From positions 32,001-96,000 of the IMG/VR virus record IMGVR_UViG_3300029319_000005: 64,000 nt of DNA. One strand, 5' to 3'. Numbering within the stretch: position 1 is the first letter of the stretch; every line of letters starts with the position of its first letter. Shown here piece by piece: positions 2,743-49,541 of this stretch. A program made the translations under genes and the position numbers. This DNA is from a virus. The notes below the pieces were generated by a model, which saw nothing but the letters and a program-made list of their open reading frames with translations, made no database searches and had not been told where the DNA came from.

Positions 2743-5700
2743 TTAGTCCTCGAAAGACGCTCCACTATTAGTAATTGTGAAGTCAATAGCGATGTATTCT
2801 ACAGCCTTTGTTGGCTTTAAGAAGATCTTCGCATAAATAATGTTTCTATCAACTAGGTCTGGTGTAGTCGTCGTATTATCGAGGACAACCTTGAAATCAT
2901 CTAGACCAAATCTAGCCTTAATGCTCGCTAGGAACGGATTAACCTTTCCTGTGAACCTATTCCACGTTGTGACTGTATTCTGGTCGAACAGGACCTGATT
3001 AGCCATCTGGGAAATACTCTTCTTAACAAAGATCATCAATCTTCTAACATTCACTCTATCAAGAGCCGAAGGTGTTACTTGAAGAGTCTTCTGTCCGAAG
3101 ATAACGATACCTTCATTTGGGAAAGAAGCGATAGGATTAATGTTTGCATCATAAAGTTTATCGCGGTCTTCAGCAGCGAGTCTTTCAGACACGCCCACTA
3201 CCGGAATTCCTGCGTCTCCCTTGGAGAGGCCGCCTCTGTTGAAGCCAGCAGGAGCAAACCAAAGGTCTTGCTTTCTTTCGCTGTTAGACATAGCACCCAG
3301 CGCAGCAATAGACGGAGGCACCCAAACTGTAGCGTTATTCAGAGTGTCTCTAATCTGCACCCAGGGGTAATACGCGCATCCGTAGCTAGAATTAATGCCC
3401 CGATTATTTAGACTATCAATTGTTGCCTTGACGCTACCCAGTCTTCCTGACTGTGCTGTCGTGTTTTCTGAGCTAGGCACGTAGCCTCCTGCTAGATCTA
3501 CAACTGCTAGCGCGTCACCACGATCCTCGCAAATATTGATTAGATGATCAGTCAAGCCGCTAGTCGTAATACCAGGAGCAACGGCGAGGTTGTAGTCAAC
3601 AACTTCCGGATCTTTTGCAGAATCAATAGCTCTCTTAACAGAGTTATAAGCATAATTCGTTAATTCTGTTCCATCAGCAGTAAATGTATTTCTAAACGGA
3701 TCTGATTCATCAATTCTAAGCCCATCAAAGCCGCCATAAAAAACAGTCGTAAACTTATTAAATCCTGCGCTTAAGATATCTTGCCATGAACCAGAACCTG
3801 CGGTTATTGAACGCCCCGCCGCACGACTACCTGAATCATAGTTTACTGTCAGGCCAGAAGAAGAGCTTAGATCGTCTAGCGAGAAAACCCAAGACCATTC
3901 AAGTTCATTAGCGACAGTGTCGCTATCTTTATGGCTATCAGGGAGCGCCCTAAGAATATCTCTTGTTGATTTTTCAAAATCAAGATAGAAAATTCCGCCT
4001 TCTTTTCTAAGCACATCTGCACCGAAGTATGCTTGTCTTGGGCTTTGTATGTTCCCATCTAAGGATCCAGACCTTAGAGGAATAGCCGGGAAATCAAAAG
4101 GAGCGTGTGCTCCTGCTCGTGCAGCGTTAACAGACGCTGATGGCGCAACACTAATCCAAGTTCTTTGACCATCAGCAATTGGATCATACTGGCCTCCTGG
4201 AATGAACGAAGTCACTCCGCCTACAAACGAAGAGACGTAAGTATTAACGTAACTTGTTGACCCCGAAGTTGCAGAACCGCTAACAACATGCGGACCAAGA
4301 GTTCCAGAAATAAATCTCCACGATGCGAACTTCGGGTGTCCATAAACTCCGAATGGTAAATATGAAGCGTCCGTTGTTCCATCATCAACGTCGAGATTCA
4401 TCTCAACTCTAATAAATTGTGAGTTGTTATCATAAGACCCGTACTCTATGTAGCGCTTTGTGTCTTCGTCCCATTCAATATACTTGTCACCAATCTTTTT
4501 AGCCACATAGTTTTCAGAGTTAGGATTGAGATTACAATTATCATATAATTCAACAGTTTTCAAAGCACCATCATTGTCTTCTATTTTTCTAATTCTTACA
4601 CTAAAGTGCCCATAAGGATCTGAATTATTGGTTGGAGCCGTTACATTTTCAATTGAAACTTTGAGATTGTTTTGGCTCCATTCTCCCCATCCAAGAGAAT
4701 GAACTCTAAATAACTTCTGCATGCTCTCGGGACTATAAACAGGAGATAGAACATTATCGCTGATGTCGCCGGACCCCGAGGTTGTTCTTATATCCTGTGA
4801 AATGAACCAGCCAGTTTTGGCCCTTCTCATTCCATAGTTATGCTCTTGCCATTGGTTAGTAGCTGTGCCAAACTGAGCCATAGGGAGAATAACTCCCCAT
4901 TGTGCAGAGCCAGTGCACTTATTGTAAACTTCTCTTTCGAAAGTCTCTCCGAGCCAAAAATGTTTTGTGTTTGTTGTCACAGCGGTGTTTGTTAATACCG
5001 GATTTGTATTCAATACTTTTCTAATGTACTTGCTTGAATTTCTATCAAAATTAAATGTAACGGTTTCAGTAGCCGCAGCCCCCGCATCCGCAGATCCATC
5101 CATCATAACAAGCTTAAAGGTCTTATCGTTTGTAGACTTGACCCAGATTGAGGAACCCGTCACGTCAGGTATACCACCAGCCGGAGCTACATCGTATCCA
5201 GCGGTCGACCCGCTTAGCTGCGGACATCCAGTATTGGTATAAAAAATCGCTCCTAGTGTTCCAGTAGCGCTCGCGGCGAACATCCATGGTGAACTCCCAA
5301 TTGCACTGCCGCCCGCGTCGGATCCACTGTCAATAAGCCAAAGGCCATAAGCGCCGCCGCCTGCAATAACATCCGATGCTCCAGCAGCCTTGATTTCATT
5401 TGTCGTATTCCAGCCTGCGCCTGCGGCTCCGGTTCCAGTGCCTTTGGAGTTCTCATCGCCTAGAAGTCTCACTATTGTCACGGGGGAATTATTTGTCAAC
5501 CAAGCTTGTGCCGCATATGCAGCGTATGTCGGAGCACCGTAATTGCCATCTCTCCAGCTATCTGTGTTTGTTTTGCCAGAGATTGGATTGCCGAATACAG
5601 TTACAAACTCTGCAAAAGAATTTACTTGATACGGTACCATCGCAGGGCCTCTTTCGGTCCTACCAATGATAAGAGGGCCTCTTCCTGTTGGCTCATTTGG

Positions 5701-7233: not shown

Positions 7234-8565
7234 CTACCCTGTATAAATGCCAGATGGCACCACCTTCATAGTGTTATTTACATTCCCTTGTATCGTCGCA
7301 TCTCTCTCAGATAGCTTTGCATAGGTTAGTTCATCGAGAACAGTTTTGAGTTCTTCTCTTAATGCCTGTTGCTCATCTTTTGCTTGCGACAGAAGTTCAT
7401 TTGCATTTAAGTTAACATTATCGCCTGGTATTGGAATAGTATTACCAAACTTGCCTCTTACTTGCGCCAGCATTTCTTTTGCAGTTGCCAGTGCGAATCT
7501 TCTAATCCACTGCTTGCCGATGCTGTTGATGCTCGTATATGGTATGTTTGCAAAGGGCAGTGTGTTCATATTATTGACACCATCCGCTCCGCTTTCTTTA
7601 TCAGAGTCTTCTACCCAAGCATCTGTTTTTATTGAGAATTGAACCCAAAACTTAGTAGGAGATAGACCAGTTGGAGATGGGAACAATCTTAAGTTATTAT
7701 TTTTAATTTCATAAGAATAGTGAGAATTTCTAGTATAAATCGCATCTTCATAAGCCATAGCTTGAGCTTTATTTTGCCATGCGGGAATCACTTCAAATGT
7801 AGAATCATCCGAATACATGCCATATGTCGACATATTACCCACCGCATTTAAGCCGCCATAATAGCCATAGAATCTCCACATAGCATGAGGAGTCTTGTAA
7901 AACACTTTTTTAATTGTAACTTTATTATTACCGACAGATCCAGTAAACAATCTGCCCTCAGCAGAACCGTCCACAGAAGCCGAATAAATTATTGACTGTA
8001 AGTCATAATCTTGCTTGTTTGCCACTGTATCAAAAGATGCCGAATATTCCGGCAAAGAACCGCCTATGCCAATAGCTTCAGAAACTCCGTCGGCGGCTCT
8101 TCTAGAATACTCAAAAGTAAACCTTGGCATTTTTAGTTCTACCCTATCTCCTCCAAGGCTCGAAGAAAGCTCTCCTGCTTTCATTTCTCCATCTTGATCA
8201 AAAGAGCCCGTCTTGTTCCCCATCAAGTCACCCAAAACGTTTTTAGCTTGATGTATGTTTACAATATATGAATATTCTAAAACAGCTTCTTCATAGGCAG
8301 TGTACACATTGCCTACTGTTAGTTCAATATCTAATACATCGCCTCCAAGTTTCTTATAGGTGTAAGCTACTTGATCTGATGCTCCCGAAATGAAGTCTGT
8401 GTTGGTCGCGCCGTACTGATTAGCTAGATAGATCCCAAATGCATAGTTTGCAGAGTTGCCAGCAGAGTTAGCCCATTCGTTTTCATTTGACTCTGCTGTT
8501 GAGCCAGTAGATGTTAAAACTACAGGACTTGGATTTTGTTTTGGTGATAGTGTCGGCATTGCCAT
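7234..8565 (-). CDS. Neck / head-tail adaptor protein (gp13-like)
   Basis: KKLGGDVLDIEL, WIRRFALATAKEMLAQVRGKF and IPIPG..LNA..L motifs. Start moved to 8565 (MAMPT) because of the CAGGAG SD. Confidence 0.8.
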   Translation of the reverse strand: MAMPTLSPKQNPSPVVLTSTGSTAESNENEWANSAGNSANYAFGIYLANQYGATNTDFISGASDQVAYTYKKLGGDVLDIELTVGNVYTAYEEAVLEYSYIVNIHQAKNVLGDLMGNKTGSFDQDGEMKAGELSSSLGGDRVELKMPRFTFEYSRRAADGVSEAIGIGGSLPEYSASFDTVANKQDYDLQSIIYSASVDGSAEGRLFTGSVGNNKVTIKKVFYKTPHAMWRFYGYYGGLNAVGNMSTYGMYSDDSTFEVIPAWQNKAQAMAYEDAIYTRNSHYSYEIKNNNLRLFPSPTGLSPTKFWVQFSIKTDAWVEDSDKESGADGVNNMNTLPFANIPYTSINSIGKQWIRRFALATAKEMLAQVRGKFGNTIPIPGDNVNLNANELLSQAKDEQQALREELKTVLDELTYAKLSERDATIQGNVNNTMKVVPSGIYTG

Positions 8566-8589
8566 GCATGTTGTCTCCTGCGCTATGAG

Positions 8590-8597
8590 TAAATAGT
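8590..8597 (-). promoter_or_regulatory. Putative late promoter ACTATTTA upstream of neck gene
   Basis: Plus strand taaatagt, immediately downstream (in transcription) of the capsid gene terminator. Confidence 0.65.
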
Positions 8598-8626
8598 GTC
8601 CATAAGCACATTTCGAACTTAGAAAC

Positions 8627-8659
8627 AAAAAAGGCCCCCACTTTCGTGAGGACCTTTTT
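8627..8659 (-). terminator. Rho-independent terminator after major capsid gene
   Basis: Coding strand AAAAAGGTCCTCAC-GAAA-GTGGGGGCCTTTTTT: GC-rich stem, GNRA loop and U tract. Confidence 0.85.
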
Positions 8660-11800: not shown

Positions 11801-12331
11801 TTAAGAGCTACCTGTCAACTCGCTAATTCCGGAACCAGTTAACTCGTACATTTCTCCTGGTTCGATAAGGGTTAATTCTGCTAATAATTGAAAACTAGCG
11901 CTATTATTTAAAGCACCATTGGCTATGTGTAACTTTCTAGTTTTAATGTCTAAAGTAATAGAATCATTCGTGTTTGGTAGCGTAATATAATGGTTTTGCC
12001 GGATTGCTCCATTTTGATTAGAGGGCGTTATGTGCGCCTCCGCGCCATCTCCAAAGTATACGTGGAGAACTCCATCACCCAATGTCGAGTTGTATTGACT
12101 GCCGGTATAATAATTCGTATTGATGATAGTTATGGTCTTAGTTACTTTTGGAAATTCAATTGTTTCAAAAGTTCCAATTGCCTGATCAGAAGCCATGCCG
12201 GAGCCCTTTATAGAGCCGTGCGACGCGGGAAGAAAAACTCCGCCGGTAAGGTACGGGTGACCGCTTACCTGGAAAGATCCAACATTCTGGATGCCCGCTT
12301 GGTAGCGCTTGAACATGTTATCATAAGCCAT
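11801..12331 (-). CDS. Putative virion structural protein (possible head decoration), 176 aa
   Basis: Beta-rich, Gly/Ser/Thr-rich with TGS/SAS motifs; located in the head cluster; AGGAG SD. Confidence 0.5.
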   Translation of the reverse strand: MAYDNMFKRYQAGIQNVGSFQVSGHPYLTGGVFLPASHGSIKGSGMASDQAIGTFETIEFPKVTKTITIINTNYYTGSQYNSTLGDGVLHVYFGDGAEAHITPSNQNGAIRQNHYITLPNTNDSITLDIKTRKLHIANGALNNSASFQLLAELTLIEPGEMYELTGSGISELTGSS

Positions 12332-26734: not shown

Positions 26735-27246
26735 AGAATATAACCCGCTTTTGCAATCACCAAAGCGTCAGCACGATCAAAAGCTTCAGGCCTGGGATTG
26801 CCGTGACGAGTGTATTCTACCGGGAAGCTTGGTTCTGTGTCAAGGAGAAACTCCATAACGCAATCCTTGCCCTTTTTTCCTCTCGGAACCTTGATACCAC
26901 ACGCTTTTCTAGCCGAAGTGACTCCAATAAATTCAGGCGTGACTCCGAAAACTTCATATATCAGCCATGATATCATTCCGTTAAATTTCGCTAGCTTTGT
27001 GATGGTGCCAGCAGAAGACATCCCAGAACTAAGAAACATTAAAGATTGTTCTATAAAAATCTTCTCTATCTTAGTTTGGCCCAATTCAGCTTTTAATTCA
27101 AGAGCCAGGTTATGTATAATCTTTGCCTTTTCAAAAAGATCCTTAGATTTTTTTGTATTCCAAGAAAGTGTTGAAAAGTAAGTCCCGTCTTCTCTTAGCA
27201 GAGCAACACCCGTAATGCTAGTTGATATATCCAAGCCAAGTATCAT
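26713..27246 (-). CDS. RuvC-like Holliday junction resolvase
   Basis: MILGLDISTSITG, FIEQ and DRADALVIA acidic catalytic motifs. Start reassigned to MILG (27246). Confidence 0.85.
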   Translation of the reverse strand: MILGLDISTSITGVALLREDGTYFSTLSWNTKKSKDLFEKAKIIHNLALELKAELGQTKIEKIFIEQSLMFLSSGMSSAGTITKLAKFNGMISWLIYEVFGVTPEFIGVTSARKACGIKVPRGKKGKDCVMEFLLDTEPSFPVEYTRHGNPRPEAFDRADALVIAKAGYILCQTGKS

Positions 27247-27264
27247 TAAAAAAGAATACCACAA

Positions 27265-28584
27265 TTAGACATCTAGTTTAAGCCTAAATGTTAATTCGTC
27301 CTTTTCTCTCTTGCGAACAGGTGTTGCCAGTTTAGCCACTCCAATTAGATTGTCGAAATCATCGTATATTCCGATTTTAGATATATAAGTTGTACCTTCA
27401 TAAGAAGCAGAATGGCTCGAAAAAGAACTGCTATTTATAGCCGTCGATTCAATATTTGGATTCTGTATAAAGGTCGCGCTTCCGGTAGTCACTCCAGAAC
27501 CAGAATTGAAACTGCCAGATGTAAAATTATACTTAACAAATGTAGGATTGTTAGAGTGATTCAATTCTCCTTTAGGAGCCAGTGCCTCCATTGTAATTGT
27601 GGGGATGTAATTAATTCCCTCAAACTCCATGTGATAGCTAGCTGTTGCTGCGGAAGATCCCGTTGGGCCTAAAAGGCCAAAATATTTCCATGCCGGGGCT
27701 CTCCACTCGGCAGATGGGCCAAGAAAAGACCCAATGACGGCTGTGTTGGTTGGATCCCAACTACCGGTTAAAGTAATAATTCCTTCATTGTATAAAACAA
27801 CGCCAGCAACACTACCAGAGCCGCCGCTTCCATCAGGGCCAACTTGAACAAGTTCTCCATTTTGCCTTTCATCTTTCAGTTCTCCTATAAGAGTACCAGT
27901 AATATAAAATCTTAGTCTTACACTGCCCTTGTTTATCGATGATCCATAAAATATAGAAGGTATATTAATAAAAGACATAGCTTGCTTGTCTTTTTCCCAG
28001 CCTGTGTCATTTCCATTGCTACTAGAGAACTGGTAATGTTGGCTAAGTATCGTATAATTATTAAACGTGTTTCGTAGTGCTTCTATGTATCTTGTTGTGC
28101 TCGGAGACGCCAATTCTTTGTATCCCCTTGTATCGTTTCCGTTGGCGACCGATGAAGTTGCGTTGTTGTCCGCGACGGCGAATCCATTACTAGCCGAAAG
28201 AAAATCAATTGAAATACTAGCGCTCAACGGGTATTGCGCAGAAAAGATTGTGCCATAATCTGATTGGTTAAAAGAACTAGTTGTAACGGTTTTAAACGAC
28301 TCAAGCTCTCCACTCTTAATTATTGACGCTGTTACGGTACTAAGAAAGGGCCTATCAACATTCATTTCGTACAGACTAATAGAGCCGCTACTTAAATCGG
28401 CACTATTACCCAAATGAAGAACTATACCATCGGCACTTCCTGCACCTCCAGGATATAGCTCTCCTTTAAATCTCTGCTCGTTATTTAAGAAGATGTTGCT
28501 TGCAGTTATCCAAAATTCGTTTTTAGGAAACGTTTTTAGTCTTGAATAAAACAGATCATCTTTTCCAAACCTATAATAAGACAC
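27265..28584 (-). CDS. Baseplate/fibre-attachment structural protein
   Basis: C-terminal YISKIGIYDDFDNLIGVAKLATP..K...FRLKLD is paralogous to the neighbouring gene; Ser/Gly/Thr-rich. Confidence 0.65.
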   Translation of the reverse strand: MSYYRFGKDDLFYSRLKTFPKNEFWITASNIFLNNEQRFKGELYPGGAGSADGIVLHLGNSADLSSGSISLYEMNVDRPFLSTVTASIIKSGELESFKTVTTSSFNQSDYGTIFSAQYPLSASISIDFLSASNGFAVADNNATSSVANGNDTRGYKELASPSTTRYIEALRNTFNNYTILSQHYQFSSSNGNDTGWEKDKQAMSFINIPSIFYGSSINKGSVRLRFYITGTLIGELKDERQNGELVQVGPDGSGGSGSVAGVVLYNEGIITLTGSWDPTNTAVIGSFLGPSAEWRAPAWKYFGLLGPTGSSAATASYHMEFEGINYIPTITMEALAPKGELNHSNNPTFVKYNFTSGSFNSGSGVTTGSATFIQNPNIESTAINSSSFSSHSASYEGTTYISKIGIYDDFDNLIGVAKLATPVRKREKDELTFRLKLDV

Positions 28585-28623: not shown

Positions 28624-29715
28624 TTAGTAATCTAAGCGGACTTTTAACGTCATCTCGTTATTTGGGGTCTTCTTAAGAGGCTCGGACAGTTTAGCGACAG
28701 CCATCAATTCGTTGTCAGCCGAATACAAACCAACAGTGGTAGCGTAAGCAACAGGTACATCCAAATTATTTTCTTTAACAAATACCTTACTAGCACTTAA
28801 ATAAGTTGGATTAGAGCTATAATTAAACTCATTATGATTTGCTCTACAGAAATAAATTGTAGAATTCAATTCAGTTGTATTATTAAAAGATATATTATGC
28901 ACTCTATGCCTTAAGCAGTCCGCTGCTTGTCTAATTGTAGAGCCGGTAAGCACACCTGTTATATGAAGTATTGTCTGATTGTTGTTAGAATCTTCATTGG
29001 CCACGGATCCGGTAAAGTCCGAAGATGCCGAAAAGTTACTAAAGACTGAGGAAGTCAACACTGCAATTCCTGCTTGATAATAAATCAGGCCTTTTGGATT
29101 AGTGGTGTACTGTTGATACAAGATGCCATATTCTCCTGCTGGAGAATTAATACGATAGTCTGTGCTAGCACTAGCATCCACAAGAGTCATCAAAGAACTG
29201 GCCAAAGATCCAATGGGAGTCGCGCCGCCAGTTAAAAATTGCAGGCTTGTCTCTCCCTTCTTGATCTCATCTTTCGTAAGAAGTCTAGAAAAATTGAGGA
29301 AAACACAACTTGTTAGCTTTGTTCCTCCGCCAGTGATATCTCCATCCTCGTCAAAAAGCTGGATAGCTCCGGTCACATCATTACCCATAAGCACTTGTGC
29401 CATTTGGTTATAAATATTTCTCTTCTTTTCGTGCTGAGTATTCGTAGAGGCCGCTATCGCTGAGCCAGACGAATATCCAACCGTAATATCAAAAATGTGG
29501 TTTGCAGAAGAACTTAAATATGGATAGTCATAGACCGACTGGAACATGCCATGAGAATAGTTCTTAATATTTTCCTCATTTGGAAAAGCTGTTGCTGTTC
29601 CATTTACCCCGTAGGTTCCAGATACTAGCGTACCTGTAAGAGGTATATTTTCGTGCAATAGCGTTCTTGTAGTGGTTACGTCATCTGCTGTAATGTTTTT
29701 AAAAGATGTTCCCAT
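28624..29715 (-). CDS. Baseplate/fibre-attachment structural protein
   Basis: EFNYSSNPT and C-terminal YATTVGLYSADNELMAVAKLSEPLKK...KVRLDY; paralog of 27265..28584. Confidence 0.65.
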   Translation of the reverse strand: MGTSFKNITADDVTTTRTLLHENIPLTGTLVSGTYGVNGTATAFPNEENIKNYSHGMFQSVYDYPYLSSSANHIFDITVGYSSGSAIAASTNTQHEKKRNIYNQMAQVLMGNDVTGAIQLFDEDGDITGGGTKLTSCVFLNFSRLLTKDEIKKGETSLQFLTGGATPIGSLASSLMTLVDASASTDYRINSPAGEYGILYQQYTTNPKGLIYYQAGIAVLTSSVFSNFSASSDFTGSVANEDSNNNQTILHITGVLTGSTIRQAADCLRHRVHNISFNNTTELNSTIYFCRANHNEFNYSSNPTYLSASKVFVKENNLDVPVAYATTVGLYSADNELMAVAKLSEPLKKTPNNEMTLKVRLDY

Positions 29716-33700: not shown

Positions 33701-34327
33701 GGTTTCTGCACTTCCCTCCGAATTAGCAAGCTCTATAATATCTTCTAAAGTAACCAGGCCTTGCGTTGCTTTTTCTGGATCGGCCTGTCCGTTTATATTT
33801 CCTATATTCATATTATAGCCACCCTGCGTGACCGTTGCTAAATCATAGGGAAGCTTGTACTTGTTCTGGTCTTCTATTAAAGAGCTAGCTAAAACTTTGC
33901 CTTCACTATCCAGTTCATAAGAAAGCCATTTTTGTCTCAAAGATAAAGTAAATTTTTCTTCTAAATTAGATATTAATCCATTATTAAAATTAAAAAATTG
34001 ATCGGAAACTACGTTTACATCGCTACCATAGCTATAAAATCTCCAGTAGTCAGACTGTATTTCTGAAAGACTCTGTGCGCTATACACTGCCTCATCAAGA
34101 GAAAAGTTTTTATACACAAGCTTTTCCATGTATTCACCAACAATGCTCGAACCTTCAAGACCATTGTTTAGCGGTGGTAAATCAATTTCTTCGATCTGCT
34201 GGAGTCCGAAAGGACTAGGATCATAATAATACGATCTAAATTCTATCCTTAGCGGTTCTCTAACAATTCCTCCGCAAGCGTCTATGTTGTAGTAGCAATT
34301 TTTTTTAGAAAATTTTATTGAACTCAT
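30749..34327 (-). CDS. Large hypothetical virion protein with C-terminal FN3/Ig-like segment
   Basis: 1192 aa; YVDTQVKFGKRYVY and ISGYRIYR...YYYTAKSIDAHG are FN3-like strand patterns. Confidence 0.55.
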   Translation of the reverse strand: MSSIKFSKKNCYYNIDACGGIVREPLRIEFRSYYYDPSPFGLQQIEEIDLPPLNNGLEGSSIVGEYMEKLVYKNFSLDEAVYSAQSLSEIQSDYWRFYSYGSDVNVVSDQFFNFNNGLISNLEEKFTLSLRQKWLSYELDSEGKVLASSLIEDQNKYKLPYDLATVTQGGYNMNIGNINGQADPEKATQGLVTLEDIIELANSEGSAETFGFSATIKEDAPFIEDHSFEYSTPYSKDGLAAANITTQALDADVKFRYHYYLKEYEDAVIGLSDSSTSISSVNGLSLALKTSGDRVEHILPSPYDYEYANFVLDNDFYSNVTAGGGSEKITPILDTTKNVINSIQVFEKLYGADYVDYTSLGGKISFSLIRDGSVIDYLREWSKAASAYQQQALQEEKNNTVDEASGYEVLSQVAKNRNRFLAESGHIQSELDNALHKQKASTLSPDALNSLLNNAVFDYFSFNNSEIEQYFGDMDFTLRNSLNIGQKNTKLSNPGAAFPMSVEIKFRYPVETAFHPLAQNGNSLESLLSSKSVGSNTQAGLMQKIMSMNFADPFMRATVDAIDIISGGPTPINEQENDPTVISPSAKTPNFVRQASILQKEQYGHRTNHTKLHSVNLEDVVQLVLNADSVNSSGTIVDNYTGIMKRTSKTFFSDTDEDFFLPRGEEVTIDFPMTIKTHKELYETPNLKIVRRDFRDIIEGKKCFVETLFFGIEKYEVQKDDRGRRIPINRSNIVQRFFLTPPPLAGQESTDEYVRYVDTQVKFGKRYVYQIFAYVLVYGTEYRCSKIEETSVKDKAIEQLDETQDTIVDAFDITYQSRPSYKIFKVPFHGIDWEDKGGVFLPTLIKNNPPTAPYMEIRPYQNVNNQVLINMQASAGDVFQFPISIRDDEQESYEYDPSDIYFNNTPSGMLRFSSDDSISGYRIYRLDVAPKKYSDFNDAIVFDVNAALGSSIKDNISPNVRYYYTAKSIDAHGRYSNPCPVFSVELVDEKGLIYPLIEEYPMNMKSNRTRTKSGRKALYIEPARNQIKISSNADPENPTLGVNNKSVFDKRFKVRLTSRKTNKMIDFNVRFNQVNENKKDLDKINISQKEFLPKYAFNNYQFYSGSLEPNFDLALAFDTSKWDFPDTAETGVVAENKPVIEIPPSIVPISLGDAGAETNTDAMPSTPNPPTMEPKSLPLPQQGGSANDPYRG

Positions 34328-37300: not shown

Positions 37301-37382
37301 CAAGATTAAATAAGCTAATCTCCTTGACGCCAAACTCCGGGAACGGTCCATTTCCTGCCGATGTCATTATAGCCATTAACAA
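34338..37382 (-). CDS. Large hypothetical protein (1014 aa), Lys/Asn/Ser-rich
   Basis: ORF track; located in the baseplate cluster; visibly AT-rich. Confidence 0.65.
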   Translation of the reverse strand: MLMAIMTSAGNGPFPEFGVKEISLFNLGQQTKVNIKVVLKDRGNKFAKWFTKSTTQNLYLKVVQITDSELIPEVLTEKTIVSSQELKTFNQKNKKEHLINIKTSLAAMGLKFNMTQLQKFFVRKDNGANLYEIPMEFEFIVDSAEPETLEYFFIPKITGKLYQASSTNTLFSKLDKRNSLIKREVVINGGQVSRTATAYILNQPGKASGVVWSGAVHFMGANMNRPMTGISHSSNSQYLSATGIPNTKIKDFRLLNEINSVSYNKINFAGDTFKKSIFSRGYFSRTYYDSTTGYFSMNTNNLLKSYISFSNHFDDSMLDLKDFASLASLKITRRKVEINDGEVVVVSPTEVVREYKNPNKAFGTGNTDNKFSTVTTMFNDVKLNNFVKTFDFHDELEQAEGAKYQYGVEGTIIDLTSSKIKVLLKQLSKRVKDLLALKSNAEKEYNYSSLCYSPEFINTESNSKIIKDSIMDLMVVLSIGNKSLDIQNVVSFLKNISLPISGNPDGIEKLINIIDTTTSKLQSYSNSYLSKKPGNSTGTPQKSNNKSLKSTKEIKFSHFFKDIIGADSTYYGYEYLSSAQKLSTVAGKAAEVGINYGPSRNLSKQEFLERINLETEKYFVQDSADDDGAFSNTLIPQDSGETINPNDSIERTKYTFLTPALIKMSQVKIKQKQTPGGEKKTQSIIFNSYDDKPLFDNLNVNVAKINLDQYNEVVSKIIKYNKTNKISLNKINDEKKSIDAYIKDLFSDGSVVVTATSLEKKKEFKIFTNDSKTKKSFSNIKKDELKIKKSKESLFMFSVAANSDLDYSEDSMSYYDINSSDSAIAKPGFSVDSSKDQVAKSTRLLPNQVKSLMFNMVNSNLVKKNNLGNNDTALNSAKNFGAYALLYKNLVIIEYLSGYELDESGTPNVSKELWAPLDLTRVSSNAIENTLCRIRSYELPEFNIKKINLLQLPIYDEYFKITNENFNQAQVQSLQSAFSKQDEMLSTINSTINGDDSDLMGGGIKIMPEDTFTV

Positions 37383-39223
37383 ATACTCCCTGGATCTTCC
37401 GTGTCATTTCCATATATATTTATTCTGTTAGGTGCAGGTGTAGCATCAGGCTTCAAAAGCTTATCGACACGAATATTTTTAAGCCTATCTTTATACTTTG
37501 CAAACAATCGACTGTCTATTTCTTCATCAACAAAAATATTCATAAAATATTCTACGTTATTTTCGCCTACCGGTTTAGAAGATATTTCTTCTTCTTCGGG
37601 CACATATAAGAATCCTGATTCTTTTTCGGCATCGCTTTGAGAAAAATATAGTCTCCTAAGCGTTTTTGACGCTGGGTCCTCGTCCCAATTAACAAGCGAT
37701 GTTAATACACCAGCAGTAAATAATGTTCCTTGTACAGCGTGATCTTTTGTATAGACTTCAGTAAACCCAGTTTGATCTAATATGAACTGGTAATTGCTTG
37801 TAGCACCTATCTGTTTAAATGTGGCTACAATACCGCCCGAAACTGTATATTGCGTCTGGTTAAAGGATTGGATGCTTTTAGCAATTGATTCAGCCAAATC
37901 CGCGTTTGTAGTAACATCGCTAGTGCCTATTATGTTTGCAGTTGAATCAGCCTTCGCTACCGAAGTATCTATAGTGGCGCTGTATAGAACGCCATCGTAT
38001 GTGGTAAATTTAAGGGTTTGTCCATTAGAAAGACTACCAACTCCACTAACTATGAACGTTGCGCTCGCTGGCTTTTCATTATTCTCCATTTCAAAAACTT
38101 CAATATCAAAATTTTCATTTTCGAAATAAGTATTTTTTTCATCTATTATTAAAAGTAAATAATCGTTTTTGATTCTCAACTTAAGACCATCTATCAATTG
38201 TTGCGTCTGTACAATATCTTCTTCAAGTAAATTTATAGTCTTTTTATCATCTAGGATTGCTCTAACATTAATATCTGCTGTAATTTGTGGTATCGACAAG
38301 TCTCCGTATGTGTAATATTTTGTATTGAAAGAGTCTAGCTCTTTGTTGCCTGGTGTAAAAGCAACTAAATTCATCGTTAGCGACCTAGTGTTTATTTCTT
38401 TTTGGTTTAAAGATAAAATATCCCATGCAGGCATTTTTTGATTTTTTAGTTCCATCGATCCTAAAGGCAGACCTTCATAATAAATATCGTGGTCAAAGAC
38501 TCTCCTCGTTCCTCCCATTTCTATTGATTCAAATTGAGTTTCGAATATGGGATAATATTTTTTTTGAGATAGCGGCCATTGGTAATATTTTGTGATTATA
38601 TACTTTGGGTCTTTGACTTCTGGCGGGGTCCCTGTGAGAGCCTTTTTATGGTATTCTTTAAGAGCTTTTTCAACATCAAAATTAGTTTCTACGGTAGTCT
38701 GAGACTCATAGCCGGACAGCGTATATGTCTTTTTAAATAGCCCTAGCCCCTCCTCCTTTTGTTTGGTAACAATATAATTCACTTTTGAAACCCAATCGCC
38801 AAATCCGTTTGGATAAAAAGGCCAATCAGTAAATTTAAATTCCTTCACGGCTGCAATTTTTGTTTCCATACCGATAGATTCAATTTTTTCTTCAAATCCA
38901 ACATGATTTTGAACTGCCGCGCTCATCAAAAAGCTCTCTTCTCCTTCCTCTATCTCTCCTAAATTATAGGCACTGCCATAATTATATTGGGCTTTTCCTC
39001 TAACGGATTCCTTAATTCTAGTAGAGATGCCATTCTGCCTCTCAGCTACGGCCCCAGCAACACTAGTAGGATCTGTCGGTGTTGAGTATTGTGTATCATA
39101 AACGATGTCATCATCAAAAAAAGCGTACTTCTTCGGCTTGAACTTTCCTTTAGACAATAGCAGTTTGCCATATTGAGTTAGTTCAATATCTATAACTTCT
39201 TCTTTTCTATTGAAGAATGTCAT
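37376..39223 (-). CDS. Baseplate structural protein (615 aa)
   Basis: N-terminal VIDIELTQYGKLLLSKGKF...YAFFDDDIVY is similar to 29737..30678. Confidence 0.6.
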   Translation of the reverse strand: MTFFNRKEEVIDIELTQYGKLLLSKGKFKPKKYAFFDDDIVYDTQYSTPTDPTSVAGAVAERQNGISTRIKESVRGKAQYNYGSAYNLGEIEEGEESFLMSAAVQNHVGFEEKIESIGMETKIAAVKEFKFTDWPFYPNGFGDWVSKVNYIVTKQKEEGLGLFKKTYTLSGYESQTTVETNFDVEKALKEYHKKALTGTPPEVKDPKYIITKYYQWPLSQKKYYPIFETQFESIEMGGTRRVFDHDIYYEGLPLGSMELKNQKMPAWDILSLNQKEINTRSLTMNLVAFTPGNKELDSFNTKYYTYGDLSIPQITADINVRAILDDKKTINLLEEDIVQTQQLIDGLKLRIKNDYLLLIIDEKNTYFENENFDIEVFEMENNEKPASATFIVSGVGSLSNGQTLKFTTYDGVLYSATIDTSVAKADSTANIIGTSDVTTNADLAESIAKSIQSFNQTQYTVSGGIVATFKQIGATSNYQFILDQTGFTEVYTKDHAVQGTLFTAGVLTSLVNWDEDPASKTLRRLYFSQSDAEKESGFLYVPEEEEISSKPVGENNVEYFMNIFVDEEIDSRLFAKYKDRLKNIRVDKLLKPDATPAPNRINIYGNDTEDPGSIC

Positions 39224-45200: not shown

Positions 45201-47916
45201 TCTTAGCGTCTGAATAAATACTGACAGAGCCGGTAAAATTAGTTACGCTAGCGCCTGCAAAAAGTCGTTTAGCTTGAGACATGAACCCTGTCCCATAAGC
45301 ATTGCTGATTGACTCTGTAACATGAAATTCATTTTTTACGATGTCTTGTACTGTATTGACGCCATAAAATTCAACAACGTATGTGTCTGAAACGCCTATC
45401 GTTCTATTATCTAGTGTTGACTGTGGATACTTTGAAGGCGCGACCTTGACCGCAAAAGTCCAGCTTGAGTTGTCATACACATCATAAAAGACATCGGTTT
45501 CCAGCTTTCCACTAGACAACAACGAACTAGATAATTGAAAAAATGCGTGTCTCGTATCTTTTACGCTCTTAACAGAGCGGACTTCAAAAGCCCAATCGTC
45601 TCCAGCAGCATTGTGTGCCCAAGTTGTATCAGCAGGCGTGTCCTGGCGCGCGGAGTGTGCGCCAAAAATAGAGGATGTTAAGGGGTAATTACCCTCAAAC
45701 TCAACCATGTCCGGATCCGGTATATACGGAAATAGTACTTCACTCTCAAATGTTGATCCAAATCCATTAGCTTCTTGCTGTAGCGTAGGATATCCAGAAG
45801 CCGACAAATACGCAGTGGAATCCGTAATTAAGGAAGATGTTTGTTGATAGACGACCGCGCTGTTTGCATCTAACGAACTAAAATCTATGAAAGTCTTTTT
45901 AATTGTTGAATCATAATATTCATCTTTAACATCAAAAGTTAGATTGTCGGCAAAAGTGTTAATTTTTATTAAATCTTCATTAATCCCAAAACAGTGCATC
46001 AAATTCCTAAGAGACTTTATGGTCCCCTTAGATTTCATTATTTGAGTCAAATTGTTGTAAATGTTCTTATATATTAAATTTTTAATATCATCCAGTGGCT
46101 GGGAATGGATCTTGTCTTCTCCCATTTGCAAGAACTTTTCTACTATTTCTGCATCTGCAAATAGGTTTTCAGTATTGAACCCGACTCCATCCAAAAGATT
46201 TCTACTAATAGATGATTCTTTATTTATCTCGCTTAAAGATCCGGATACATATCTAATATCTTTTATCTTATTTAATTCATCAATCATAATATGCAACTCA
46301 TCAAAATAGCTGCCTATTATTTGTGTTAGCTGTTCAAGAGTTGGGTTTGTCTCCGACTCTTCTCTTATCCAAGATGGTAATGAATTAAATATGGAAGCAT
46401 TGTTAGTAAGATCGTGTAGTTTACCTTCTTTTATTTTTGTTTCTATAAGAGATTGGACTTGTGGATGTTTTTCATAAATTATTGGGTCTTTAAATTCTGC
46501 TGCCGAGGCGCTTGCCTCTACAATTGCAGAATTTGTTGATCTCATATCCGTCAATAGCGCGCTGCTGTTGCTATACCCTGTCCAAGTGCCGTTTGTTACT
46601 CTTCCGGAATAATCCAAAACAACAGCATCTACGCTTGCTGTCTGGGTTATCCCCTCGTTAAACTTATAATAAACTCCAAGATCTACGGCGTTCCCATCTT
46701 CCGCAGAGCCGCTATAATAATATTTTATGTCGTCGGTATTTGTGCCGCCACCAATCTGTCTTTTCCAATATCTCCCAATTTGTTCAGGAGTTCTCTCTTT
46801 TCTCCAGAATCGGAACTCATCTAGAGATCCGCTTAAGGCTCCGTAGCCTTGCGTCGCAGCGTGGGATCCAGAAGGAGAAGCAACTAGGGCACCAATTTGT
46901 GCTACCATAGTTCCCGTTATTGAAGAAATAGACGATCCTGTAATTATTTCTTGGTTTAAAGCTCCATCTACATACAGCGTGGCTCTCATGTTGCTTCCCG
47001 TATTGGCGAAGCTAAGGGCATAATGGTGCCATGTTGAGCTTGTAACAGGAACATCCGTACCTATTGATATTAGTGTTTCTCCGCCAATCGTGGCAGGCTG
47101 TGGGTCAAAAACTCCTTGGGCATACTGTCCTGACCCGGACATCAAAGAAATGTACAATGAAGAACCAGATGGAACAGGATCGACACAAGTAACGACTTTT
47201 AGACGCCCATACCCAGGCTGCCCCGCGACATCAGCACCCCAAGAGCCACTACTCCAAAGATCAAAAATTACCTGTGTTGGTGATTCAACGCTCGAAGTGT
47301 ATGGCACTTTTCTAAGCCAGAATTCTACTGTGAGTCCGTCAGTTCCATTAAACTCAAGATTAGATATTCTATTAATGTTAGAGTCATAATAGTTTGGCAA
47401 AGAATTAATAGAAGAGCTTGGCACAACTTCGCCACTCAGAGTCTCTGTTCCTCTAAGCTTACTAGGATGTGGACCACCTTTTAGAAAAATATACTGAGGA
47501 TAGTCATTGTAGGCATACGGATGTGAGACACTAGTAAAATTGCCCGCTACAGTGCTCATCTCTCTAGACCCTAGAAAATTAATGTATCCATTTGTTCTAG
47601 GATATTGTTCTTCAAAAATATATTTGTCGATCAAAAGAGAGTTTTGATCCCATTCCATCTTTTCTCTTAAAGAACCATCATAGGGATATTCTTTGTAAAT
47701 ACGCTCTATTGAATCTTGGTAATATCTAGCAGCCAGGCCGTATCTAGCAAAGTTTTTAGGGTCAGAATAATCTACTTGAGGCAAGACTCTATTAGATTTT
47801 TTTAAATAAGTTGGCACAAAAGCGGAAGACTCCACTTCTTGCTCTAGGTCTTTTTTACTTTTTTTAGTCAATAGCTGACTAAACTTTTCTTTTTTAAAGA
47901 GATCTTTTAAACTCAT
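39220..47916 (-). CDS. Giant baseplate/receptor-binding protein with LamG (concanavalin A-like) domains, 2898 aa
   Basis: TVEFWLR, WHHYALSF, LYVDG, SGSLDEFRFW and YYKFNEG are LamG features; IMKSKGT..SLR.L resembles a wedge (gp7/P2 gpI-type) segment. Confidence 0.75.
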   Translation of the reverse strand: MSLKDLFKKEKFSQLLTKKSKKDLEQEVESSAFVPTYLKKSNRVLPQVDYSDPKNFARYGLAARYYQDSIERIYKEYPYDGSLREKMEWDQNSLLIDKYIFEEQYPRTNGYINFLGSREMSTVAGNFTSVSHPYAYNDYPQYIFLKGGPHPSKLRGTETLSGEVVPSSSINSLPNYYDSNINRISNLEFNGTDGLTVEFWLRKVPYTSSVESPTQVIFDLWSSGSWGADVAGQPGYGRLKVVTCVDPVPSGSSLYISLMSGSGQYAQGVFDPQPATIGGETLISIGTDVPVTSSTWHHYALSFANTGSNMRATLYVDGALNQEIITGSSISSITGTMVAQIGALVASPSGSHAATQGYGALSGSLDEFRFWRKERTPEQIGRYWKRQIGGGTNTDDIKYYYSGSAEDGNAVDLGVYYKFNEGITQTASVDAVVLDYSGRVTNGTWTGYSNSSALLTDMRSTNSAIVEASASAAEFKDPIIYEKHPQVQSLIETKIKEGKLHDLTNNASIFNSLPSWIREESETNPTLEQLTQIIGSYFDELHIMIDELNKIKDIRYVSGSLSEINKESSISRNLLDGVGFNTENLFADAEIVEKFLQMGEDKIHSQPLDDIKNLIYKNIYNNLTQIMKSKGTIKSLRNLMHCFGINEDLIKINTFADNLTFDVKDEYYDSTIKKTFIDFSSLDANSAVVYQQTSSLITDSTAYLSASGYPTLQQEANGFGSTFESEVLFPYIPDPDMVEFEGNYPLTSSIFGAHSARQDTPADTTWAHNAAGDDWAFEVRSVKSVKDTRHAFFQLSSSLLSSGKLETDVFYDVYDNSSWTFAVKVAPSKYPQSTLDNRTIGVSDTYVVEFYGVNTVQDIVKNEFHVTESISNAYGTGFMSQAKRLFAGASVTNFTGSVSIYSDAKISSVKAWMSHLSNEEIKSHAIDASNYGTRQPANNAFVFQTGSTSNSGSTNVFIPKIKTLALDWNFELVTGSDAAGGFAVYDITSGSSDLKEEYGWLGNVVNLPNSGIGRGFLASTSSFVSVEYLEDSKKQLPELLYSEDMVSILSFDDDNLYRDQKPIKFITSIEKNMYHNLSEEIMNFFASVRDYGALIGRTEERYRQNYKRLAFLKQIFFERLGNTPDVEKFIDYFKWIDKALGDMILNLVPASSGVSRGIKTVIESHALERNKYRNKFPTIDSKFAEPASSGQLQPNLDTTSNDGNIAIPPLLVEQYEGFSAKPNAFLAGPKLNSPPSTDQDFHILWWKNKVDKTKYAKTGDAVLDVVRQKLFTVYQSGNQDLQNKPFVFNTSIKSKEIAGGVRMPTNKKGMSIASKVLSFASNKQFVINNSNVSDSTKTYIEEIIPTELLTKRKIVEVNIDNEPDAYLASGSDSVLPFAFYSASYEYDSGASLGGYLASLGVSLSSTQINFGNDFSNNEFETPLQGPFTERFVGGYQYRNVAPNKLDEAGNFNTAYNRPEGYNIVLASNQITVVPVDSINTNFARGTRIRLPGVKRPVNITNRPFYATSGSAITGNLNFTTPTRTMGNFERNYELVMTTGRDINNLWFKSGSTGLGGVSNQYPEVFTLTGNLNFALPDRATGSNKTVIAERFSSPGGKEVLTKGYLDPASETYSVYNQLNYRNSTVRTALNVSGALHSLLYGIQTGSFVSGDAYSPLVTASYHKVNRNARKNVTVIETSYMPPVNPTVLSGAIFDNDNVTHQIPQSDRNYNWITSSMFDINSAPYGFANPIGFVSSSSGEISQFKFLSASQTSVDSHVVDFVGLNTLINAPLLTGTNAVSTASLNTSIASLNSSDLLNALLLHQNGPYGFVSWKQINNSTNPLVRNMVKNNRISTFAAMNDFFAKSKYKWSGASGKEKVSHNSATNVRQLTSFTEPPVITSFKPITHKVATKDYDGNEANFDIKHSYANNISKFASVDLNNALGAENNKPTQPYDKLYKIYTNKDLGDDNPISELLSLEYKETIYPRSVNAYLGKIRGRQNYTELPGTGENGFDRINRRTFWRDSLFQRERTAGTALNSQGYTVYNNQSRILSVWPVDCGDVSEIDGLNGFPIDLSDINGAVGELVHYPFVNPTGSVDDGIFPSGFNAPMYGYHVSASAAMYRRAINHKVYADAYIRPPGYRTNVLAGKNPWFNSYEDYSEDIRRIAKDYAVLPEFRISDHMDFYLNNQSSSFIGTNNKFLSLDGAAHTSSANGEFADFNDNFFDIYSNSDFMKYFDVVQEDHINEEIGKPSRIKMTCRGVKKLLPYNGFYPSTRTLQLASLLSQSLGPYLSGSNENSNNPDTERLNSINRLFVAPGILFNSIKSAVAVDFPFYTEAKTGSTAYPNGASSIQQQLIGYSDDYDMRFPFEGLVDIVRHLPPTIKDVTAFGTSSATQTNIFLGEPSATGSYPYANWMFEKKPNFELAMHNFLGETVKFFLKDQQLTNFYSAQESQFKTMKSGSTYGMKVNMYKTNDMKLSENTDASAIRGRARGALYGPPMSSSYHSESNSVLSGFDDPAYAPHTPPYFYGLSQATLTFQCFETKKYTLEEIIAGVTASYTNANPALTGQYNDNVTRNKMEISASMNLFGTTRVQKVNYSTGLGPDGNYLPNTFETPSDSSFDVWSIGTKWECPALNFSASYSVDEGVGVWAGYGKIPDDTTGIFTGLSNVSDQESLLEVVGFQTSKERVGKIAESKKISEAIVAIPFVDSPELTGLDTVEYLGKSFFKIDTDEYRYQTELKISKGIAVEKGSTEDGADNIQQTSITDMYEKMQKYVIPPQLDFTDKDLDKDPFAMYIFEFNHVLDQRDLADIWQGVMPKISITAEKQDVTIEHAMNKHEFFGGMPLPPETRWMVFKVKRRAENNYFKITADSKDDDRFKFLFKSSEKDYKHSYNWPYDFFSLVELGQIEAAVEIEGDKKE

Positions 47917-49541
47917 TTTTCTTCGACTCTAAATTTAAAAACTTCTGCCTGTTCTTGGTAATCGCCATTAATATTATATGCAAAATGTATTTTATACATA
48001 TAATCAGTATCTAACATGCTCATGTCTAAATCGAAGTAGTTGCCATCAGAATCGTAGGACAATTTTGTTGCCTTGGTACTGCCAGTATTATAAGCGACGA
48101 CTTCCAGACCATCTACTGCTCTAATAATTTTATAATGTGCTTCTTCAATCACTTCTGTATTTGGCGTTGTAGAAGACAAAGTATATATATTTGGATTCCA
48201 ATTCTTATCCCTGACAAAGAGCCTAAGTCTTGGCTTTTCTTTGTTCGTATATGCTGCTTTTAAGTTTACTATGTTAGTTACGTATTCTCTAATTGGATAA
48301 TTTGTTGATCCTGTTATTCCTGTCGGGCTTATCGTGCCTGTGAAAAACTGTGTCAGATCGTAGTTTGCAAAAGTTCCAGTACTCCAAACGTCATAAATTG
48401 TTTCTAACGATGGAGATCCCGTAAATGCCAGCGAGGCTGTATAAATACCAGTATCATAATAGCCACCTGTAGCATATAAGAGACTCTCTCCTACATTACC
48501 ACCAGCACTTAAAATCATTTTAGAGCCGGACGGCTCTGTATCGCTAGCCGATCCAGAATACAATGCGACCATAATTGATCCTGTTGTGCCAATTTCAGGA
48601 ATATTTTTTAATTGTCCTTTAATATAATTGTATAAAAATAGCGTATTTAAGTTGTCTTCCGCAGGAGCCAAGGAACTGCTCATAAAGAATTGCCCTCGAT
48701 CATCTTGTACAGAGGAGTCCCATCTAGCTTCTAGCACTGGCCTCTTAAAAAAGAAGTCGCTGGTTCTGGAAAAGAACTTTTTAGTATAATACGACTCCGT
48801 CGAGCCTTCTAGATTTCTAGGGACGTTAGTGCCATCTCCTACTGAGTACGCTTCTTGAGATGCTGTCAAATATACACCAAATCCATAGTTTAAGTACGTG
48901 CCCGCAATCCACTCTTCTACCGCCGCAGTCACGTCCACTTCCATGTCTTCATCGCCGTTGGTGAAGGTTGTAGTATACATTGGCATTCCATCAGTCCCAG
49001 CAGAGTAGGCCGCTGTATGGAATGTTCCTCCAGGGACAAAGCCAGTCGTTTGATCCATACTAGAAGTTCCCCACGCTCCGTCCCATCCTCCTTTACCAGA
49101 AGCAGGAGCATCAACGCTTCCGGATATATTGCCAGAAACCCAATTAGATATACCAGTATCGGTATAATTCTCCATGTCTAGCCCGGTACCTTCATTCCAG
49201 GACTGGGAAACAGCTTGTACATTAAGAATCATATTTCTAGGAAGGGTTAGGCCATGTTTGGCGTTAAACATTCTAAGATAAAATCTAACGCTCCCGCTAG
49301 CAGGTATAGTTCCTGCTGTCCTATCTCCTTTTATTTCCCCCGCCGTTGTGCCGGATACCGGAAATTGTATCAAAACCCTGGAAAGCTCCGTTGAGCCAGA
49401 ACTCGCTTGGCCAACAATAGAAAAAACTTCAAGGATATCAGAAGCGCCCATGTTTGATCCAGTGCCTCTTGTGCTAAGGTTAGTTTTAAAAGCATTCGTT
49501 ATCGTGTTATCCGCTGTGGCAAAATATCTTTTAATTGACAT
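47913..49541 (-). CDS. Baseplate-associated structural protein with DNRLRE-like N-terminal domain
   Basis: ATADNTI, N.G..DILEV, SRVLIQF, FYLRM, SWNEG, NYGF and P.LEARWD pattern; Ig-like C-terminus. Confidence 0.55.
   Translation of the reverse strand: MSIKRYFATADNTITNAFKTNLSTRGTGSNMGASDILEVFSIVGQASSGSTELSRVLIQFPVSGTTAGEIKGDRTAGTIPASGSVRFYLRMFNAKHGLTLPRNMILNVQAVSQSWNEGTGLDMENYTDTGISNWVSGNISGSVDAPASGKGGWDGAWGTSSMDQTTGFVPGGTFHTAAYSAGTDGMPMYTTTFTNGDEDMEVDVTAAVEEWIAGTYLNYGFGVYLTASQEAYSVGDGTNVPRNLEGSTESYYTKKFFSRTSDFFFKRPVLEARWDSSVQDDRGQFFMSSSLAPAEDNLNTLFLYNYIKGQLKNIPEIGTTGSIMVALYSGSASDTEPSGSKMILSAGGNVGESLLYATGGYYDTGIYTASLAFTGSPSLETIYDVWSTGTFANYDLTQFFTGTISPTGITGSTNYPIREYVTNIVNLKAAYTNKEKPRLRLFVRDKNWNPNIYTLSSTTPNTEVIEEAHYKIIRAVDGLEVVAYNTGSTKATKLSYDSDGNYFDLDMSMLDTDYMYKIHFAYNINGDYQEQAEVFKFRVEEK

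Follow-up and report, generated by a model that had tools for sequence, protein, structure and literature searches.

A candidate O-glycosylation sequon in the virion proteins of a Far-T4 phage and a phage-encoded transferase pair that may read it

The capsid of chlorovirus PBCV-1 is glycosylated by soluble glycosyltransferases (GTs) that the virus itself encodes. In Gram-positive cocci, GtfA/GtfB carry out O-GlcNAcylation of serine-rich-repeat adhesins, and the Bacteroidota possess a general O-glycosylation system, located in the periplasm and supplied by a lipid-linked donor, that recognises the sequon D-(S/T)-(A/I/L/V/M/T). Among bacteriophages, glycosylation of the virion has been described for the mycobacteriophages Che8, Corndog and Myrna (Freeman et al., 2023, via PMC12619734 and PMC12363180); mycobacteriophages are so far the only phages whose own enzymes are documented to glycosylate the virion, and there the modification is found on C-terminal tails. 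Here we analyse a 64,000-nucleotide stretch of viral DNA (the window), corresponding to bases 32001-96000 of the 147,376-bp contig IMGVR_UViG_3300029319_000005, in which the tripeptide [ST]-[GA]-S is strongly over-represented in a set of proteins that includes the tail sheath and the major capsid protein (MCP), and we consider it as a candidate acceptor sequon for O-glycosylation.

An initial annotation of the window had counted this tripeptide by hand and proposed that it was a convergently selected modification site on the exterior of the virion. Its counts are the same as exact counts for the proteins that it listed, and two further enriched proteins can be added, one of 464 aa and the other a 377-aa tail fibre encoded outside the window (Table 1). 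Pooled over the nine proteins there are 98 sites against about 20 expected, and over the eight that lie in the window there are 92 against 18.0 (5.1x). The counts also stand far above the composition-preserving shuffles that the annotation had suggested as a comparison, both global and local: shuffling within 10-residue windows gives an expectation of 24.5 (z 15.8, an approximately 4-fold excess), and shuffle windows of 10, 15, 20 or 30 residues give 21.8-24.5 against the observed 98, with z about 16. Because the excess survives both whole-protein and local shuffles, neither the global nor the local Ser/Gly composition explains the motif.

The excess is, moreover, specific to this tripeptide. 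In the same eight proteins the control motifs [ST][GA]T and S[GA]T reach 1.45x and 1.27x, and [DN]GS, [ST]G[DN] and [^ST]GS stand at 0.58x, 0.58x and 0.61x; since such control tripeptides show little or no excess, a generic preference for beta-turns can be rejected. An unbiased scan of the enriched set, which had itself been selected by the motif, ranks TGS first, SGS second and SAS fourth of 5,366 tripeptides. In unselected whole proteomes of the closest cultured relatives, SGS ranks first for the Flavobacterium phage vB_FspM_immuto (immuto) and fifth for both Rhodothermus phage RM378 and Microcystis phage Mel-JY01. The codons at the sites are diverse, Ser being drawn from both AGY and TCN and Gly and Ala from all four of their codons, so the signal lies at the level of the peptide and a DNA-level motif is rejected.

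The nine carriers share neither a domain nor internal repeats, the only detectable similarity among them being that between the paralogous 439-aa and 363-aa proteins, and 39 of the gaps between successive sites span at least 40 residues. This agrees with the earlier description of motifs dispersed through unrelated folds rather than arranged in tandem. The same description held the motif to be rare in several other proteins, and it is: terminase, Mre11-Rad50 and the gp6-like protein have no site, the primase and the 2956-aa protein have one each, and the portal, credited with about three, has 3 against 1.0 expected.

Enrichment is maintained across relatives. In a comparison set of 80 related marine IMG/VR contigs, whose MCPs are 57-73% identical, the sheath family has 383 sites against 134 expected, the MCP family 308 against 113, the 464-aa family 275 against 65.9 (74 relatives) and the 176-aa family 49 against 9.8 (17 relatives). 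For the 439-aa family, 48 homologues have 418 against 66.7. These and all later pooled counts come from related sequences and not from independent trials. The homologues of the LamG protein are likewise enriched in immuto (8 against 2.3) and Mel-JY01 (13 against 2.5), as are those of the 542-aa protein (5 against 0.8 and 4 against 0.6, respectively, with at most one site position in common), and the 363-aa family has enriched homologues in immuto and five copies in Mel-JY01, every one of them enriched. The positions of the sites, in contrast, turn over rapidly. With 3.9 sites per sequence, the MCP family spreads them over 55 alignment columns, and the 439-aa family occupies 56 columns, only one or two columns per family being widely occupied. 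Sheath orthologues have 11 (this phage), 8 (immuto) and 7 (Mel-JY01) sites, with only 1, 1 and 0 positions in common, and the MCP and 542-aa orthologues behave like the sheath, deep orthologues sharing 0-2 positions, although imperfect alignment of the variable regions means that turnover is somewhat overstated. Inheritance of fixed sites is thereby rejected, and the combination of non-homologous carriers with site turnover between relatives bears out the proposal that the motif has been convergently selected. At conserved sites, here meaning those present in 30% of sequences or more, position 1 is almost equally S or T (422 / 411), position 2 is G, A or S (528 / 261 / 152) and position 3 is S or T (727 / 126), a preference for Ser over Thr of about 6:1.

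The sites are also restricted to particular parts of the proteins. All 11 sites of the sheath fall within its outer variable region (aa 148-659) and all five MCP sites within an insertion of about 200 aa (aa 164, 212, 256, 278 and 297), as the initial annotation had noted. Over 37 sheath homologues the outer region (aa 148-714) has 294 sites against 79.9 (3.7x), compared with 1 against 12.3 (0.08x) in the N-core and 10 against 16 in the C-core; over 80 MCP sequences the insertion (aa 131-327) has 285 against 80.3 (3.5x), compared with 7 against 21.4 (0.33x) in the N-terminal part and 21 against 27.5 in the Gp23 C-terminal part. Independent modelling of MCPs from the Far-T4 group, to which this phage belongs (see below), gave a conserved core whose variable parts lie outside (Roux et al., 2015, PMC4360716). 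The tail-tube family (38 homologues) has a single [ST][GA]S against 12.7 expected, with [ST][GA]T at 13 against 13.4 and [DN][GA]S at 11 against 9.6; [ST][ST]S is likewise low, at 4 against 14.0. Non-virion proteins of the phage are not depleted (about 41 against 44 genome-wide), so it is only in assembly cores that the motif is avoided, a pattern consistent with subunits being modified before they assemble.

Structure prediction is in keeping with this distribution. In AlphaFold2 (AF2) models of the MCP and the 439-aa protein, both of which have a low overall predicted local distance difference test score (pLDDT 59-60), all five sites of the better-predicted MCP insertion (pLDDT 76-86) lie at strand or helix termini, and in the 439-aa protein the two confidently modelled sites, 256 and 273, are at or beside strand/loop junctions. 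Mapping the motifs onto predicted structures, as had been proposed, puts confident-region sites at junctions of a strand or helix with a loop; those of the sheath and MCP fall in the variable outer parts only. An exterior location of the carriers, also claimed initially, is indicated for four of the nine, namely the sheath through its outer domains, the MCP through its insertion, the fibre with an S74 chaperone domain and the LamG protein; the other five are unplaced.

The annotation had pointed to glycosyltransferase or sugar-nucleotide genes elsewhere in the genome as a natural companion of such a motif, and a 16-gene cluster encoding soluble proteins of this type indeed begins 1.2 kb past the end of the window. 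By Pfam it specifies two 4,6-dehydratase/epimerases, an NAD-synthase-like protein, Ugd, a GT11, DegT, a hexapeptide acetyltransferase, WbqC, PhyH, a GT4, WecB, a GT2 and two further GT4-type proteins, the phage having five GTs (GT11, three GT4-type and GT2) plus sugar-nucleotide enzymes. The NAD-synthase-like gene, standing among sugar enzymes, possibly encodes an amidotransferase for a uronamide, and the DegT-like gene is short (206 aa), as is its immuto counterpart (41% identity). Kyte-Doolittle windows reveal no transmembrane-like segment in any ORF of the cluster, and no flippase, polymerase or initiating phosphoglycosyl transferase family of Pfam is present in it; the inference is that the acceptor is cytoplasmic. 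A role in surface polysaccharide synthesis or serotype conversion (Wzx/Wzy, GtrABC), which calls for a polytopic membrane flippase, polymerase or initiating transferase, is unsupported on the same evidence.

The last two GT4 genes, which adjoin a gene for a PD-(D/E)XK nuclease, form a tandem pair and are the only genes of the cluster conserved in all of G001 (a related genome of 185 kb, 100% complete), immuto (gp181/gp180), Mel-JY01 and RM378 (p013/p014); in RM378 the sugar-synthesis genes are not adjacent to the pair. The E-x7-E motif is found in family A of all five phages and in family B of four, being degenerate in RM378, and as it is kept in every family-A protein this family is the best candidate for the initiating enzyme. 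By sequence the pair are generic retaining-type GT4 enzymes, nearest to BshA and MshA, with a weak match to the chlorovirus GT B736L (PDB 3oy2, E 2.9e-6) and no GtfA/GtfB match in PDB and NCBIfam searches. A tblastn search of 50,697 phage records with family A recovers eight records only, comprising this clade and a distant match in S-EIVl.

Across phages, motif and transferases largely travel together. Proteome-wide counts (observed / expected) are 139 / 63.6 in this phage (9 enriched proteins), 177 / 87 in immuto (10), 175 / 84 in Mel-JY01 (13) and 81 / 36 in RM378 (7), an excess of about 2x in all four GT-bearing phages of 130-190 kb; each has both families, family A being annotated as two ORFs in Mel-JY01 and family B being the degenerate copy in RM378. 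Enrichment is absent from T4 (45 / 56, no family A, no enriched protein), S-SSM7 (131 / 112, no family B, two weakly enriched proteins), S-EIVl (45 / 37.5, the distant family-A match only, no enriched protein) and LR756511 (170 / 151, no family A, no enriched protein). The intermediate case is LR756508, a 484-kb phage that has a family-A homologue (29% identity) and no detected family B, with counts of 210 / 154; it encodes two 824-aa sheath paralogues (202463-204937 and 205952-208426). The seven enriched proteins of RM378 are essentially unannotated and have no BLAST homologues in this phage, and the RM378 sheath and MCP are not enriched. The densest carrier seen is the 1053-aa immuto tail spike gp101 (97658-100819; L203:13659-16820), with 53 sites against 12.3 and only 3 [ST][GA]T, in which TASYA/SGSF-type repeats are followed by HAEG-type repeats. 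Mel-JY01 also encodes an 805-aa protein (635-3052; L100) with massive S/T/G low-complexity repeats and 75 [ST][GA]T, which makes it a Ser/Thr-rich surface protein of another, repeat-type kind in a phage that bears the GTs; the proteome-wide tripeptide counts of Mel-JY01 include SGT 96, TSG 85 and GTS 82.

We favour the reading that [ST]-[GA]-S is an O-glycosylation acceptor sequon, recognised before assembly by a phage-encoded cytoplasmic transferase, and would assign it a probability of roughly 0.57. The cultured hosts, Flavobacterium, Rhodothermus and Microcystis, belong to three phyla, so the reader of the motif should be encoded by the phage. On this model the family-A GT4 would transfer the first sugar from a nucleotide-sugar donor to the motif Ser/Thr of soluble, unassembled subunits, the family-B GT4 would add a second, conserved sugar, and the lineage-variable GT2, GT11 and further GT4, supplied by the sugar-nucleotide enzymes of the phage, would build a lineage-specific glycan. 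Since modification would precede assembly, the motif would be selected on what is eventually the outside of the particle (sheath outer domains, capsid insertion, fibres and baseplate periphery) and purged from assembly interfaces and buried parts such as the tail tube and the sheath and capsid cores. The likely benefit would be a glycan coat that masks or stabilises the particle or tunes its stickiness. We infer that the GTs act on virion proteins, and likewise the residue modified, the order of the enzymes and the benefit. Whether the Far-T4 phages at large, an aquatic clade common around the globe, run a phage-encoded 'general' protein O-glycosylation, with a GT4-read sequon, rapidly shifting exposed sites that would form an evolving glycan shield, purged interfaces and swapped glycan genes, seems to us evenly balanced.

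A number of observations weigh against a glycosylation sequon. The case for modification is circumstantial, GT and motif are associated within a single clade, where phylogeny is a confounder, and LR756508, despite its family-A homologue, has an excess of just 1.36x, none of its proteins being enriched individually. The non-virion enzymes, which a promiscuous cytoplasmic enzyme would be expected to modify too, are undepleted. Four proteins of the virion module, of 2956, 1192, 1014 and 615 aa, are without enrichment; unlike their enriched neighbours, they may be internal or interface-rich components. A 612-aa tail fibre that is probably a surface protein is similarly unenriched (3 against 2.5). 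In the immuto spike the motif belongs to repeats of a fibre type, is flanked at -1 and +1 by hydrophobic or aromatic residues, and could be purely structural, and both of the structure models are low in overall confidence. Finally, a late-promoter-like heptamer, CTAYTTA, precedes many virion genes and is found directly upstream of none of the GT genes.

The alternative that survives best, although unlikely, is that Phi-[ST]-[GA]-S-Phi is a clade-specific strand-end or beta-strand element unrelated to the GTs, in which two hydroxyls are exposed and the small residue points inward, and which is favoured, in outer domains and fibres rich in beta structure, for folding, solubility or trimer packing. 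Such an element would account for the hydrophobic and aromatic flanks in immuto (I, V and F at -1; F, Y and L at +1) and for the TASYA/SGSF periodicity of its spike, but in this phage the flanks are weak (Leu at -1, Thr at +1). It would also suit the position of the sites at strand or helix termini in both models; against this, Thr is usually favoured in strands and is the rarer residue at position 3, and depletion is seen for [DN]GS and [ST]G[DN], which are equivalent turn formers. LR756508, with a GT but no strong enrichment, likewise speaks for a motif independent of the enzymes. A structural element is, however, difficult to reconcile with occurrence in families that have no detectable similarity or common domain, with the rapid turnover of site positions, and with the lack of enrichment in the sheath, capsid and fibre homologues that T4 and S-SSM7 encode.

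A second alternative, which we regard as improbable, retains modification but not glycosylation: another clade-specific enzyme would phosphorylate, O-acetylate or ADP-ribosylate the motif, and the glycan cluster would serve elsewhere, perhaps acting on a host or small-molecule acceptor. Sequence data do not of themselves identify the chemistry, which leaves room for such an enzyme, but it is the GT pair that is conserved across immuto, Mel-JY01 and RM378, and no alternative enzyme has been shown to be so. A soluble cluster with several GTs and no export machinery needs a cytoplasmic macromolecular acceptor, for which DNA is unlikely. Furthermore, Ser and Thr with small neighbours are typical O-glycosylation acceptors.

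More doubtful still is the idea that the GTs glycosylate phage DNA, whether in the manner of T4 or as glycan hypermodification, and that the peptide motif is unconnected with them, an idea that leaves the motif unexplained. Phage GTs commonly modify hydroxymethylated bases, at least in work cited in PMC12619734 (Pyle et al., 2024), and the GT pair adjoins nuclease and replication genes. Against this, a thymidylate-synthase-type hydroxymethylase (PF00303) is absent from this phage, G001, RM378 and Mel-JY01 in a search that detected the T4 control, and a search for TET/JBP, run without a positive control, gave no match. In immuto, liquid chromatography with UV detection and tandem mass spectrometry (LC-UV-MS/MS) of the DNA found dA, dC, dT and fdPreQ1 replacing dG, with no glycosylated nucleoside reported (PMC10516641). 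Immuto is also the sole GT-pair phage with a strong thymidylate-synthase-family gene (26905-28149, W01; 5.5e-85), which, taken with its fdPreQ1 DNA, shows that members of the clade differ in DNA modification irrespective of the GT pair.

Recognition of the motif by a general glycosylation system or other enzyme of the host is the least probable explanation of all. Bacteroidota do possess general O-glycosylation, but enrichment of the motif is common to phages with Flavobacterium, Rhodothermus and Microcystis as hosts, and the Bacteroidota sequon fails to match (in immuto, Asp at -1 occurs 0 times against 6.5 expected). That system also works in the periplasm, while the assembly of virions is cytoplasmic.

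With a virion glycosylation sequon as the favoured reading, the locus can be set beside the systems described at the outset. Like PBCV-1, the phage would have its own cytoplasmic machinery with sugar-nucleotide enzymes, no lipid carrier, and a non-canonical motif on the exterior of the capsid; PBCV-1, on the other hand, is a eukaryotic virus with N-linked glycans on one major capsid protein, whereas here the link is putatively O-linked to Ser/Thr, in many proteins of a bacteriophage. With GtfA/GtfB the locus has in common a tandem, cytoplasmic GT4-type pair, Ser in S-A-S-like contexts and later GTs that extend the glycan. The acceptors of GtfA/GtfB are, however, long tandem Ser-rich repeats and not dispersed single sites, and GtfB is a non-catalytic partner; an active/inactive pair of that kind is not supported, as E-x7-E is retained by both GTs in four of the five phages (EGFG...E in both families of this phage, G001, immuto and Mel-JY01). 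The Bacteroidota system offers a three-residue O-sequon used on many unrelated proteins, in the phylum to which the Flavobacterium host belongs, but here there is no Asp, the residues being Gly/Ala and then Ser, the machinery is soluble and phage-encoded, and hosts of other phyla are involved; nor is Asp enriched at -1 in this phage. There is a parallel, too, with the mycobacteriophages, whose GTs are proposed, in the accounts of PMC12619734 and PMC12363180, to act within the cytoplasm of the host on structural proteins of the phage itself and so to form a glycan coat. The glycans in those accounts are carried by the C-termini of capsid and tail-tube subunits, unlike the dispersed internal tripeptide found here in at least nine proteins, with no C-terminal Ser/Thr tail and a tube that is free of the motif; the present phages, with Gram-negative hosts and cyanobacteria, are moreover T4-like myoviruses whose glycosylation is putative. 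T4 DNA glucosylation and glycan hypermodification share the use of phage GT-B transferases and cytoplasmic nucleotide sugars, as described in work cited in PMC12619734 (Pyle et al., 2024), but the hydroxymethyl-pyrimidine pathway is absent here and immuto DNA carries fdPreQ1, not sugars. The GtfA/GtfB, Bacteroidota and DNA-glycosylation systems therefore each fail in a defining feature, and the mycobacteriophage precedent differs in acceptor architecture. Our literature search turned up no description of this motif, of glycosylated virions in Far-T4 phages, or of glycans detected by mass spectrometry or staining on the virion proteins of immuto, RM378 or Mel-JY01.

The phage itself is a myophage of T4-like type that has a sheath and a capsid protein of the gp23 family, and all long ORFs of the window are on the minus strand. 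Its divergent gp23-type MCP (Pfam Gp23) and its kinship with RM378 place it by sequence among the 'Far-T4' phages described by Roux et al. (2015, PMC4360716). The completeness of the contig is estimated at 81%. Identical copies of the 439-aa protein occur on 28 contigs, the longest of which, at 179,985 bp, suggests a full genome of about 180 kb, in agreement with that estimate. This protein has more than 2,800 metagenomic homologues, and a fold search with it returned no significant match. Pfam and PHROG gave no identity for the 2956-, 1192-, 1014-, 615-, 542-, 439- and 176-aa proteins, and a search of the ESM atlas returned viral hypotheticals only. The 464-aa protein is 33% identical to a 'putative head completion protein' of immuto and weakly matches phrog_211. 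For the 176-aa protein, which has two of its sites in a C-terminal duplication (ELTGS...ELTGSS), the ESM atlas was as uninformative as Pfam and PHROG; the position of its gene would suit a prohead-core or decoration protein. The heptamer CTAYTTA is found 25-46 nt upstream of the tube, sheath, scaffold, 439-aa and other genes (for example at window positions 2727, 5815, 11761, 28609 and 51759, minus strand), with 33 minus-strand against 10 plus-strand matches genome-wide, and is a candidate phage promoter, possibly a late one; T4's TATAAATA was not found upstream of any gene.

Table 1. Positions of the motif-bearing proteins, other virion-module proteins and glycan genes. Sites are [ST]-[GA]-S, observed against expected where an expectation is given. 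Numbering is that of the window; positions prefixed L001 and L003 lie before its start and beyond its end, respectively.
Feature	Position	Strand	Sites	Assignment or context
Tail tube, 179 aa	2158..2697	-	0	22% Ser+Thr
Tail sheath, 1008 aa	2743..5769	-	11 vs 3.0, z 4.6	Pfam Phage_sheath_1 + Phage_sheath_1C, aa 715-1000
464-aa protein	7234..8628	-	5 vs 1.1	head-completion or neck-like
MCP, 597 aa	8682..10475	-	5 vs 1.4, z 3.2	gp23 family, Pfam Gp23 1.1e-74
176-aa protein	11801..12331	-	4 vs 0.5, z 4.9	between protease and scaffold genes
439-aa protein	27265..28584	-	13 vs 2.0, z 8.1	baseplate/fibre module
363-aa protein	28624..29715	-	6 vs 1.1, z 4.6	paralogue of 439-aa protein, BLAST 8e-9
1192-aa protein	30749-34327		1	baseplate/fibre module, unenriched
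1014-aa protein	34338-37382		0	baseplate/fibre module, unenriched
615-aa protein	37376-39223		0	baseplate/fibre module, unenriched
LamG giant virion protein, 2898 aa	39220..47916	-	35 vs 7.0, z 10.9 (initially given as 'many')	Pfam Laminin_G_3, aa 260-380
542-aa protein	47913..49541	-	13 vs 1.9, z 8.4	directly downstream of gp6-like baseplate wedge gene
2956-aa protein	51776-60646		1	baseplate/fibre module, unenriched
Last ORF of window	63626..64000	-		marker only
Tail fibre, 377 aa	L001:7015-8148		6 vs 0.8	before window start; Peptidase_S74 chaperone domain
Glycan cluster	L003:1162-15115			1.2 kb beyond window end; Pfam
Family-B GT4, 425 aa	L003:15112-16389			Pfam
Family-A GT4, 415 aa	L003:16365-17612			candidate initiating protein O-glycosyltransferase; Pfam

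If the favoured reading is correct, glycosylation of bacteriophage virions would have in [ST]-[GA]-S its first defined sequon, and the use of this motif across capsid, sheath, baseplate and fibre proteins would amount to a new rule. As immuto, RM378 and Mel-JY01 are in culture and have both the motif and the GT pair, the proposal is testable by mass spectrometry, and a compact soluble GT with a three-residue tag could serve glyco-engineering. Sequence would allow glycosites to be predicted in thousands of marine and freshwater phages that are uncultured, and many marine virions would be glycoprotein particles. This would bear on the resistance of aquatic virions to proteases, grazing, aggregation and adsorption to particles, and on the showing or hiding of receptor-binding surfaces.

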